This document shows, piece by piece, positions 38,451 to 39,945 of a DNA stretch of 61,038 nt (the first letter of the stretch is position 1; each line of letters begins with the position of its first letter). Origin of the DNA: a candidate division WWE3 bacterium (GTDB lineage: Bacteria > Patescibacteriota > WWE3 > UBA101185 > UBA10185); the NCBI GenBank assembly GCA_945897985.1, contig CAMDGN010000001.1, forward strand, positions 1-61,038. Direction: 5' to 3'. The position numbers and the translations under genes are program-made. The notes under the pieces are model-generated. The model was not told the origin of the DNA. It did no database searches and worked only from the letters and a program-made list of their open reading frames with translations.

Positions 38451-38711
38451 AGGGAGTAATGGATGCTTTGACAACAGACTCTTTATTGAGCTGCATTTGG
38501 AAACACTTGCAAGAGCTCAGGTTAATCTTTGATTAACTCGATTAAAATCTTATATTCTCTATCGATGATAGAGTTTCCCTACTATTTTATTCGTTAAAAC
38601 CTGTTGAAAACGAGCATGCTTTGTATCAATTGACTTGTAAATACAGAGTAAAACCATCAATCTCACGATGGTAAAAGTTGGTTATACAGATGAGCCTAAA
38701 TCTGTAAGACG

Positions 38712-38760
38712 AACAATTCTTTTGTCTATTTAGAGCTTTAATCATCAAATATTCAATTAT
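38712..38760 (+). other. 3' halves of the 16S processing stems
   Basis: See 36927-37012. They lie about 260 nt past the mature 16S 3' end. Confidence 0.7.
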
Positions 38761-38869
38761 TTAGGTTTAATCACCAAATAATCCCAAAACATTGAAAATA
38801 AATTACACAAACTAAATTTCTTAGTTAGATAATTTTAATTAAGTTGTTACTATTGTGGAAATTTTTTAA

Positions 38870-38946
38870 TGGTGGGACCGAATGGACTCGAACCATTGAC
38901 CTCTTCCTTATCAGAGAAGCGCTCTAACCACCTGAGCTACGATCCC
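38870..38946 (-). tRNA. tRNA-Ile (GAT), inverted relative to the rRNA genes
   Basis: The reverse complement folds. Acceptor GGGATCG/CGGTCCC, loop CTGATAA, GGTTCGAGTCC T-arm, encoded CCA. Confidence 0.9.
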
Positions 38947-38964
38947 AAGTATTTCAATTAGACG

Positions 38965-38973
38965 ATTTTATCA
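38965..38973 (-). promoter_or_regulatory. extended -10-like element TGATAAAAT upstream of the inverted tRNA-Ile
   Basis: Minus-strand TGnTAAAAT, about 18 nt before the tRNA 5' end. No good -35. Confidence 0.3.
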
Positions 38974-39050
38974 TAAAAAGAATCAGATTTTGAGAAATAT
39001 ATTTATTTTAAATAACTATTATAATTTTTGAATATCTGAAAGGAGAAGAT

Positions 39051-39281
39051 ATGCCTAAAGAGGTTATTGTTTGCCAATGCCCTTGTGGTTGTGGTCGAGT
39101 TACTCGCGAGACTCACAAAATCTGCCCTTTGTGTCGGGAAGGAAAGCACCCTCGTAATCCGTTGCTACCGCCAAAAAGCGCAATTACAACTCAATGTTGG
39201 GATTGTGACAATTTTATGGTATTTGATGTGAAAGCGAAGATGTTTAAATGTCCTGAAGGCTGCAGAAGGTATTGCGATTAA
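39051..39281 (+). CDS. 76-aa Cys-rich (double zinc-ribbon-like) orphan protein
   Basis: AAAGGAGAAGAT precedes the ATG. 11 Cys arranged CxCxCxC, CxxC, CxxC, CxxxCxxxC. GC-rich. Followed by a 15-bp-stem hairpin. Confidence 0.6.
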   Translation: MPKEVIVCQCPCGCGRVTRETHKICPLCREGKHPRNPLLPPKSAITTQCWDCDNFMVFDVKAKMFKCPEGCRRYCD

Positions 39282-39287
39282 CGAATG

Positions 39288-39321
39288 AAGGGGATTTTGG
39301 TTTTGCAACCAAAATCCCCTT
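39288..39321. terminator. bidirectional hairpin terminator between the two convergent mini-genes
   Basis: 15-bp perfect stem aaggggattttggtt/aaccaaaatcccctt with loop ttgc. T/A-rich runs lie inside and next to the stem on both strands. Confidence 0.7.
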
Positions 39322-39325
39322 TCTC

Positions 39326-39538
39326 TCACTTGCAGCAATCGCAATTGCCGCAGTGGGTGCCGTACATTCCGTCGCTATTTTCATAGCGGTTGCAGTTCCG
39401 ACATGCGTCGCCACTTTGGCGCACTTCCATCGGTGCTGCTGTGGGTTTTTGAATTGGAGGTAACTCAACCTCCTTGTAAAGGCGTCCTCCTACAAATTCA
39501 TAAACTTCCCCGAAGAAGTTTAACTGACAAACACCCAT
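39326..39538 (-). CDS. 70-aa orphan protein with C-terminal zinc-ribbon-like CxxC...CxxCxCC
   Basis: AAGGAGG lies 6 nt before the ATG. TTGAAA-17-TATAAT upstream (39572-39600, minus). GC-rich. Confidence 0.6.
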   Translation of the reverse strand: MGVCQLNFFGEVYEFVGGRLYKEVELPPIQKPTAAPMEVRQSGDACRNCNRYENSDGMYGTHCGNCDCCK

Positions 39539-39571
39539 AATCTTCCTCCTTTTATATTATAGGTTATAAAT

Positions 39572-39600
39572 ATTATACAATTTTTTGATGTTTTTTTCAA
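39572..39600 (-). promoter_or_regulatory. promoter TTGAAA-17-TATAAT for ORF 39326..39538
   Basis: Hexamers are the complements of 39595-39600 and 39572-39577. The -10 region shares the 15-mer TATAATATTTATAAC with the 13349 promoter. Confidence 0.55.
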
Positions 39601-39646
39601 CTTATTTTTTTCCTACTTTCTCCCCAATTTTCGGTAAAACTTCTTG

Positions 39647-39674
39647 TTGACATTTAGTTATAAAAAAATATAAT
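39647..39674 (+). promoter_or_regulatory. consensus promoter TTGACA-16-TATAAT ahead of tRNA-Ala/23S/5S
   Basis: TTGACA at 39647-39652 and TATAAT at 39669-39674, about 120 nt upstream of tRNA-Ala. Confidence 0.6.
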
Positions 39675-39795
39675 TGTTCTTACGGAAATGGAAAAGCCCA
39701 AATGGCTGGTGGAGAATTTTACCTTCGTAACAAAGAAGCTCTGATTCAATCCAAATTATTTTAAATAATAATATTACTCTAAGGAAGCTACTCTT

Positions 39796-39871
39796 GGGCC
39801 CATAGCTTAGTTGGTAGAGCGCCACTTTTGCACAGTGGAGGTCAGGAGTTCGACTCTCCTTGGGTCCACCA
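39796..39871 (+). tRNA. tRNA-Ala (TGC)
   Basis: GGGCCCA acceptor with the G3:U70 context, anticodon stem CCACT/AGTGG, loop TTTGCAC, encoded CCA. Confidence 0.95.
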
Positions 39872-39945
39872 TAAAAACCGTATATTTAAATTGAACTTTG
39901 AAAATTGAATAAAATGTCATATTAGCATCTTCAAAAAACGATTTA

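Follow-up and report, generated by a model that had tools for sequence, protein, structure and literature searches.

An rRNA locus of a candidate division WWE3 bacterium, probably split into adjacent transcription units around an ancestrally inverted tRNA-Ile

The 61,038-nucleotide (nt) stretch studied here (the window; contig CAMDGN010000001.1 of assembly GCA_945897985.1, from a candidate division WWE3 bacterium of the Patescibacteriota) holds a single ribosomal RNA (rRNA) locus in which the transfer RNA (tRNA) for isoleucine points against the rRNA genes. We consider it likely that a canonical operon has here been split into adjacent, separate transcription units, the inversion of tRNA-Ile being ancestral. 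The initial annotation of this DNA, made from its sequence alone, had proposed that 16S and 23S–5S are separate units, and comparative sequence supports the proposal: the promoter and leader ahead of tRNA-Ala, the extended −10 element of tRNA-Ile and the separate 16S helices are conserved from 99.7% to ~82% 16S identity. The best-supported reading is therefore one of two units, 16S and tRNA-Ala–23S–5S, separated by an antisense tRNA-Ile that is transcribed independently.

The 16S, 23S and 5S genes follow one another in that order on the same strand, as in a canonical operon (Table 1). Two other canonical traits are lacking: the spacer tRNAs are not co-directional, tRNA-Ile(GAU) lying on the minus strand, and, judged by sequence, the path of an uninterrupted precursor is broken by two protein genes under selection (ORF1 and ORF2; ORF, open reading frame) and by three further conserved promoter-like elements. 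Every element that the initial annotation had listed is found where it was placed. The spacer, put at about 1.5 kb, is 1492 bp, the most compact version among the relatives compared; inverted repeats place ~263 nt within the 16S stems, where a 260-nt trailer had been claimed; Rfam and ARAGORN both put tRNA-Ile(GAU) on the minus strand, with an extended −10 just upstream in the sequence; and the TTGACA-16-TATAAT promoter before tRNA-Ala matches the consensus at 12/12 positions. The single 23S–5S pair follows, with tRNA-Ala 70 nt 5′ of 23S and downstream of this internal promoter. The 23S flanks form a duplex of −46 kcal/mol, versus −15 for shuffled sequences. The genes that border the locus, MnmA with an M23 peptidase at one end and S1 with ClpB at the other, are syntenic in relatives.

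Perfect TTGACA-N16-18-TATAAT sequences occur three times in the 61-kb window, where 0.09 would be expected by chance, and the 23S-unit promoter is one of them. We traced it through related loci, denoted by L-numbers; eight lineages were compared for promoter and leader signals and six for the 16S duplex. Both hexamers and their 16-nt spacing are invariant in the window, L001, L003, L005 and L018, and L022 retains 11/12 positions (TTGACC), while the sequence between the hexamers has diverged; invariant hexamers amid drifting sequence mark the promoter as the object of selection. The more distant L030–L033 carry an equivalent, TTGACA followed after 17 nt by a −10-like TAnnnT, with a TG one base ahead in L031, L032 and L033. 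The leader downstream is conserved in its order, running ACGGAA(A)TGGAA, AATTTACCTTC, GAAGCTCTGATTCC in 8/8 lineages, and the motif ACGGAA(A)TGGAATTTACCTTC...GAAGCTCTGATTCC persists in relatives at ~82% 16S identity. Its hairpin keeps pairing by means of different sequences in L003, L005 and L022, the pairings being AGCC/GGCT, AAGTTGG/CCAACTT and AAGCCAT/ATGGCTT. We tentatively liken GAAGCUCUGAUUC to the boxA antiterminator of E. coli. The promoter and leader also serve loci in which 16S is cut off by opposite-strand genes, as well as L033, and so must be able to supply 23S–5S alone. The other two perfect consensus promoters of the window, both TTGACA-17-TATAAT, lie at 13349-13377 (−) and 55062-55090 (+).

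The tRNA-Ile(GAU) gene stands opposite to the rRNAs in every relative examined, and a TGnTAAnAT element precedes it by 27–43 nt in 8/8 lineages compared. All relatives examined, from 99.7% to ~82% 16S identity, share a core of 16S(+), tRNA-Ile(GAU)(−) and tRNA-Ala(+)–23S–5S. In L033 we see tRNA-Ile(−) followed by tRNA-Ala(+)–23S–5S, with no 16S within 2.9 kb upstream of 23S. By this distribution, the tRNA-Ile inversion and the separate 23S promoter are evidently ancient, ancestral to a broad clade. The initial annotation had suggested looking in related genomes for a co-directional tRNA-Ile and for absence of the two ORFs; the tRNA is co-directional in none of those examined, and the ORF pair is confined to one genus-level group.

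Some relatives carry a GT2 glycosyltransferase gene next to this tRNA, beginning 5–7 nt past its CCA end and lacking a Shine–Dalgarno (SD) sequence. So short a gap with no SD suggests a co-transcript of tRNA and messenger RNA (mRNA), from which tRNA 3′ processing would release a nearly leaderless GT2 mRNA.

The 16S unit has a candidate promoter of its own, P16S; L001, L003 (TTGATT/TAGAAT) and L005 (TTGCTT/TAAAAT) preserve its hexamers, again 16 nt apart. Its processing helix is displaced from the gene, the 3′ arms (38712-38771) lying 264–323 nt beyond the 16S 3′ end; within them, CGAACAATTCTTTTGTCT is invariant across the close clade. Leader and trailer form a duplex of −61 kcal/mol in the window (shuffles, −18 ± 3.5), and of −46 to −61 kcal/mol in 6/6 lineages tested (shuffled trailers, about −20 ± 4). 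The element TTGAACCTTGATAATTG in the outer 5′ arm we tentatively liken to the Firmicute boxA. A sequence common to the 16S and 23S helices, in their 5′ arms (36916-36935 and 39889-39908), is ATTGAAC(C/T)TTGA(T/A)AATTGAATA, seen as the inverted-repeat cross-matches I4, I7 and I8; it, too, resembles a boxA of Firmicute type. Each of the two units may load its own antitermination complex.

A working model of the locus can be drawn from these elements. P16S would drive 16S and its structured trailer of ~260 nt, the unit being closed by the long leader–trailer helix, a form that RNase III-type enzymes usually process. As no strong terminator follows, the 16S transcript may continue antisense through tRNA-Ile into ORF1. 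From the opposite strand, tRNA-Ile(GAU) would be transcribed from its own extended −10 promoter. ORF1 and ORF2, both equipped with a separate −10 element or promoter and a separate SD, would converge on a hairpin that ends or stabilizes both mRNAs. Finally, the consensus sigma-70 promoter with its conserved leader (hairpin and boxA-like GAAGCUCUGAUUC) would drive tRNA-Ala, 23S and 5S, with 23S and 5S each enclosed in a processing helix. In the window lineage, the interval before tRNA-Ile has probably been emptied, and that after it holds the genus-specific ORF1 and ORF2.

The order 16S, inverted tRNA-Ile, ORF1, a small minus-strand ORF, tRNA-Ala, 23S recurs in L001–L003, L008–L012, L014, L016 and L017. 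Of these, L001, L002, L008–L012, L016 and L017 are independent assemblies from the same species or sister species, and the layout extends to L003, L005 and L022. rRNA loci are often mis-assembled in metagenomes, and the ORFs are short and match no family; these points favour an assembly chimera, or chance frames in a non-coding spacer, as an explanation. The same junctions, however, appear in over a dozen contigs assembled independently by different assemblers from different samples (ENA, JGI, Logan and NCBI), which rules out mis-assembly to the degree that sequence data can; the initial annotation had sought such confirmation from long reads. The ORFs, for their part, show many synonymous and few non-synonymous changes and retain all invariant cysteines. 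We regard this explanation as next to impossible.

Relatives span a wide range of 16S identity to the window: 99.7% for L001, 97.1% for L003, 95.2% for L005, 94.9% for L022, about 82% for L031 (GCA_049322215.1) and L032 (Ca. Nomurabacteria, GCA_020631805.1), and about 81% over the last 358 nt of 16S for L030 (GCA_964396025.1). Searching species-representative genomes with S1 returned one true relative, L005, a metagenome-assembled genome named ‘Patescibacteria group bacterium’; metagenomes contributed seven more loci, each bearing a closely related S1 (78–97% identity), and the more distant S1 homologues are named Patescibacteria or Candidatus Nomurabacteria. We describe the bacterium itself as a Parcubacteria/Nomurabacteria-like member of the candidate phyla radiation. 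Spacers measure 1492 bp in the window, 1496 in L008, 1502 in L001, 1945 in L031, 2360 in L003, 2812 in L032 and 4540 in L005.

Two intervals act as slots, gaining and losing protein genes with fast turnover. Slot 1, from 16S to tRNA-Ile, is empty in the window, L001 and L003. It holds a 694-residue membrane protein (+) and the GT2 gene (−) in L005 and L022, and GT2 in L004 and L015; L031 has a NUDIX gene there, L032 an epimerase among other genes, and L030 five genes. L018 has the membrane-protein/GT2 pair on a contig that ends before any 16S. An 85-residue ORF of L004 and L015 was considered as a remnant of the 694-residue protein and rejected, there being no similarity. Slot 2, from tRNA-Ile to tRNA-Ala, is occupied in the window group by ORF1 and ORF2. 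It contains ORF1, another Cys-rich ORF of 74 residues in place of ORF2, and a 297-residue ORF (weak PHROG match, E = 5.7e-5) in L003; a divergent ORF1 and a 103-residue Cys-rich ORF in L005; an ORF2-like gene only in L022; a 128-residue ORF in L031; CofD in L033; and nothing in L030 and L032. GT2 abuts tRNA-Ile in L004, L005, L015, L018 and L022. Because it lies beside tRNA-Ile on both sides of the split in ORF1 type, and is orthologous between L004 and L005 (53% identity), we infer that the empty slot 1 of the window is probably a secondary deletion of membrane-protein and GT2 genes that sister lineages keep.

ORF1 and ORF2 are evidently real genes under purifying selection. ORF1 has a handful of homologues (62–92% identity), with a ratio of non-synonymous to synonymous substitution rates (dN/dS) of 0.02–0.25 in codon alignments; from L001 it differs by 18.5 synonymous and 7.5 non-synonymous changes (dN/dS 0.08). 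The ORF2 homologues, likewise a handful (67–99% identity), give 0.15–0.17, with 0.17 between window and L001. In the more distant comparisons, synonymous sites have reached saturation. These ratios rule out chance ORFs in a non-coding spacer. Eleven Cys/His positions of ORF1 are invariant (C8, C10, C12, C14, C25, C28, H33, C49, C52, C67 and C71), and ORF2 bears a C-terminal CxxC...HCxxCxCC motif, with SGDACRxCNRYENSDGMxGxHCxNCDCCK conserved. Going by residue pattern, ORF1 probably binds zinc and both ORFs resemble small zinc-binding proteins. Neither has a match in Pfam, NCBIfam or PHROG. When profiles were searched exhaustively against 1.84 billion representatives, only one further small cluster at 50% identity emerged for ORF1, besides one marginal match to an unrelated repeat protein. 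Lowering the Pfam threshold to E <= 10 gave ORF1 nothing beyond a chance-level DUF6527 match and no assignment to the zf-CHCC family; profile searches of the PDB returned one marginal zf-CHCC match for ORF1 (8qby_R, E = 0.045 over 28 residues) and no match for ORF2. AlphaFold models of ORF1 and ORF2 are of low confidence (predicted local distance difference test, pLDDT, 57 and 54, respectively). The two are genus-restricted orphans.

Signals around the pair are also maintained. At the ORF1 −10 site, ~15–20 nt 5′ of the SD, L001, L003, L004 and L005 all have TATAAT or TAAAAT, and the ORF2 promoter, which stands back to back with that of the 23S unit, is conserved in L001 and L018. The initial annotation had the two genes, both SD-led and Cys-rich, converging on a shared bidirectional terminator with a 15-bp stem. 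Genes, convergence and stem are as described; the terminator itself is less certain, as U-tracts are weak (UUUCUCUC on the plus and UUCAUUCG on the minus strand; L001 has UUUUCUCA) and a terminator scan made no call. The hairpin has folding energies of −23.6 kcal/mol on one strand and −26.0 on the other (z about −5), shows a compensatory change in L001 (GGTT/AACC to GGTC/GACC), and is replaced at the ORF junction of L003 and L022 by hairpins of unrelated sequence and similar strength, bringing the lineages with such a structure to three. We consider it a probable two-way terminator or 3′-end stabilizer.

At the ORF2 site, other small Cys-rich minus-strand ORFs are found in L003 (6294-6518), L005 (6056-6367) and L022 (about 6060-6350), sharing a CxxC...HC...CxC(x)C pattern with ORF2. 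They could be one fast-evolving family or the result of repeated replacement. Such turnover invites the thought that ORF1 and ORF2 were brought in as cargo by a small insertion, selfish or mobile, which used a permissive, highly expressed slot and has no bearing on ribosome function, the split operon being otherwise unchanged. The pair is confined to one genus-level group, with ORF1 absent in L022 and all distant relatives; ORF2 gives way to other Cys-rich ORFs in L003 and L005; L003 has the extra 297-residue ORF with its weak PHROG match; and slot content turns over quickly. Yet neither a recombinase nor a transposase adjoins the pair, nor does any repeat boundary or homing endonuclease, and both genes remain under purifying selection across lineages with saturated synonymous sites. 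We hold the cargo explanation to be possible and lean away from it.

Having set out its elements, we can weigh the separate-unit reading against a simpler one, in which the locus is still one operon: a P16S transcript, antiterminated by a boxA/Nus-type complex, would run through the spacer, antisense to tRNA-Ile and ORF2 and across ORF1 and the hairpin, into tRNA-Ala–23S–5S, and the promoter at 39647 would be a merely secondary, internal one. Several points weigh against our model of the locus, some of them in favour of this alternative. P16S matches the consensus at only 9/12 positions. Between 38771 and tRNA-Ile, after the 16S helix, there is no significant terminator hairpin, only weak A+T hairpins that are no better than shuffles, and the hairpin between the ORFs, whose U-tracts are poor, was passed over by the terminator scan. 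rRNA antitermination complexes pass through many terminators; taken with the missing hairpin, this makes a 16S-to-23S read-through precursor physically possible, and a share of read-through from P16S is possible in the compact version found in the window. Within the model, the direction of slot-1 loss rests on a rough, unrooted tree built from identities and ORF1 similarity. The three rRNAs share a strand, and 1492 bp is just under the 1500-bp cutoff used to call rRNA genes unlinked (10.1101/705046). Internal promoters are also reported from co-transcribed operons, as in E. coli rrn (PMC5179076).

A single operon would nevertheless have to contend with two conserved head-on promoters, those of tRNA-Ile and ORF2. 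The promoter and leader at 39647 must also be the main source of 23S in L005, L022, L030, L032 and L033, where 16S is separated or not found upstream, and in the window that promoter belongs to the only three with a perfect consensus in 61 kb. An analogous arrangement in Borrelia yields separate transcripts (PMC3037291). On balance, we think a single operon improbable, and separate transcription units for 16S and tRNA-Ala–23S–5S remain our preferred reading.

The least expected element of the locus is the structured 16S 3′ trailer. Its minimum free energy of −70.8 kcal/mol stands at z −4.35 relative to shuffles. Across six sequences and ten helices, its 71 pairs are formed in 97.4% of cells, and compensatory changes occur in 35/71 pairs versus 5–7 in controls with the partners slid. 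The last hairpin (38686-38705) presents the loop GAGCCUAA, unchanged in relatives at ~82% 16S identity, on a stem that covaries (ACAGAU/AUCUGU, GAGGGU/ACCCUC and GAAGAU/AUCUUC), both sides having changed in those relatives. Rfam gave no match to the trailer at E <= 1, and a search of the rRNA locus for partners of its conserved loops found only chance-level 7-mer matches in 23S. Structured, covarying rRNA spacers exist elsewhere, for example in cyanobacteria, and for this reason our default view is that the trailer is an element of processing or assembly particular to the clade. A bolder proposal, in which we place little confidence, is that the trailer is more than a passive spacer, namely a functional RNA specific to the clade, and that ORF1 and ORF2 could be lineage-specific ribosome-biogenesis or ribosome-associated factors. 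Were it true, the trailer could be a cis module steering the processing of 16S, or assembly of the small subunit, after 16S has come to be made apart from 23S; alternatively, it could be a stable RNA set free by processing.

Relative to the canonical rrn operons of E. coli and B. subtilis, the window retains the order and strand of the rRNAs, the Ile-GAU and Ala-UGC spacer tRNAs, a helix for each rRNA and boxA-like elements before 16S and 23S. It differs from them in that tRNA-Ile is inverted and served by a separate promoter, the spacer holds protein genes, tRNA-Ala is preceded by a consensus promoter and a leader that are both conserved, and the 3′ arm of the 16S helix lies about 265 nt past the 16S 3′ end. 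In the Borrelia genome, too, protein genes lie between 16S and 23S–5S. Reverse-transcription PCR in Borrelia burgdorferi resolves three transcripts, namely 16S–tRNA-Ala, the oppositely oriented tRNA-Ile and 23S–5S, and this tRNA-Ile, which alone among the genes of the region points the other way, sits between 16S and 23S units as in the window (PMC3037291). Unlike the window, where tRNA-Ala leads a single 23S–5S, Borrelia has tRNA-Ala with 16S and a tandemly duplicated 23S–5S. The phylum is unrelated, so the likeness is one of analogy, not homology. Helicobacter pylori also separates 16S from 23S–5S, and maturation of its atypical precursors has been studied; its units are distant in the genome, whereas those of the window are adjacent (PMC6582327).

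Closer parallels lie within the candidate phyla radiation (CPR). One survey calls rRNA genes unlinked when > 1500 bp apart and finds this common and conserved in Patescibacteria, among other clades (Brewer et al., 10.1101/705046). In another, 27/34 circularised CPR genomes are unlinked, and a type D class is defined by 16S and 23S on the same strand, > 2000 bp apart, with opposite-strand genes between them, an arrangement beyond the reach of a single promoter (Lui et al. 2021, PMC8172020). The window resembles these unlinked loci in its phylum, in intervening genes that are partly opposite-strand, in showing a clade-specific conserved trait and in keeping 23S and 5S together. At 1492 bp it falls below the > 1500 bp threshold, a borderline case within a clade that exceeds it; compared with type D, it has the opposite-strand tRNA-Ile and ORF2 but a spacer under 2000 bp, whereas L003, L005, L022, L030 and L032 show both the distance and the opposite-strand genes. 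Falling under both cutoffs, the locus would be scored as linked by automated surveys, a practical blind spot in which a probably split locus is counted as linked on length.

The text available of these two studies describes no inverted tRNA-Ile, promoters, leader motif or structured trailer (10.1101/705046; PMC8172020), and a limited literature search found nothing on a clade-wide inverted tRNA-Ile or a conserved 23S leader in CPR. As split rRNA operons are already common in CPR, the surprise relative to the canonical operon is small; unlinked CPR rRNA genes and the inverted tRNA-Ile of Borrelia are known, and current understanding is not overturned. What the locus offers is a fully dissected, base-level example of the probable wiring of a CPR split operon, with promoters, leaders, processing helices and opposing genes in place of a single precursor, in an arrangement that is ancient within one large CPR clade. 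Its variable slots record rapid small-gene turnover right next to the genes that a minimal genome transcribes most strongly.

Table 1. Features of the rRNA locus (positions in the window unless a relative's locus is named)
Feature	Position	Strand	Basis or description
Putative 16S promoter (P16S), TTGATT-16-TAAAAT	36881-36908	+	Promoter scan, 9/12
16S helix 5′ arms	36916-37012	+	Inverted repeats I1, I3; outer arm with boxA-like TTGAACCTTGATAATTG
Outer 16S processing stem	36916-36950/38737-38771	+	35 nt, 86% complementary
Inner 16S processing stem	36983-37012/38712-38741	+	30 nt, 87% complementary
16S rRNA gene	37012-38448	+	1437 nt; Rfam RF00177, 1379.7 bits, model positions 1-1533 (full model)
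Structured 16S 3′ trailer	38449-38711	+	Ten helices, inside processing helix
GAGCCUAA hairpin in relatives (approximate)	L030 611-630; L031 4130-4149; L032 4026-4045
tRNA-Ile(GAU), CCA encoded	38870-38946	− (opposite rRNAs)	ARAGORN; Rfam 68.8 bits
Extended −10 of tRNA-Ile, TGATAAAAT	38965-38973	−	Upstream end 27 nt before tRNA 5′ end
GT2 start beside tRNA-Ile in relatives	L005 5567-5573; L004 1333-1341; L018 2242-2257; L022 5886-5907
ORF1 −10 element, TATAAT	39020-39025	+	Read from sequence; no good −35
ORF1	39051-39281	+	76 amino acids, Cys-rich; SD AAGGAG at 39040-39045
Hairpin between convergent ORFs	39288-39302/39307-39321	both	15 perfect pairs, 4-nt loop
ORF2	39326-39538	−	70 amino acids, Cys-rich; SD GGAGG at 39545-39549, 6 nt before ATG
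ORF2 promoter, TTGAAA-17-TATAAT	39572-39600	−	Promoter scan, 11/12; back to back with 23S promoter
23S-unit promoter, TTGACA-16-TATAAT	39647-39674	+	Promoter scan, 12/12
23S-unit leader	39675-39795	+	TTACGGAAATGGAA 39680-39693; variable hairpin 39695-39707; boxA-like GAAGCTCTGATTC 39735-39747
tRNA-Ala(UGC)	39796-39871	+	Rfam and ARAGORN
23S processing helix	39889-39918/42904-42933	+	Inverted repeat I2; 30 nt, 90% complementary
23S rRNA	39941-42887	+	Rfam 2535 bits
5S flanking helix, whole unit	42948-43092	+	Inverted repeat I5
5S rRNA	42964-43077	+	Rfam 77.2 bits

Elsewhere in the window, a tRNA-Ile with anticodon UAU lies at 12292-12366 (+) (ARAGORN; Rfam tRNA, 74.4 bits). Few bacteria decode AUA with a UAU tRNA, most using a lysidine-modified CAU tRNA. 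The adjacent region, 12400-14260, is ORF-poor and had no match in Rfam. On its minus strand are small SD-led ORFs of 66 (12725-12925) and 71 (13064-13279) residues and a 288-residue ORF (13394-14260) that reads like a tyrosine recombinase, with the perfect TTGACA-17-TATAAT at 13349-13377 (−); the region could be a small integrated element. Among the relatives, the 23S of L008 has a 122-nt duplicated stretch, probably assembly noise, and that of L033 contains a LAGLIDADG endonuclease ORF (5153-5758) within the gene.

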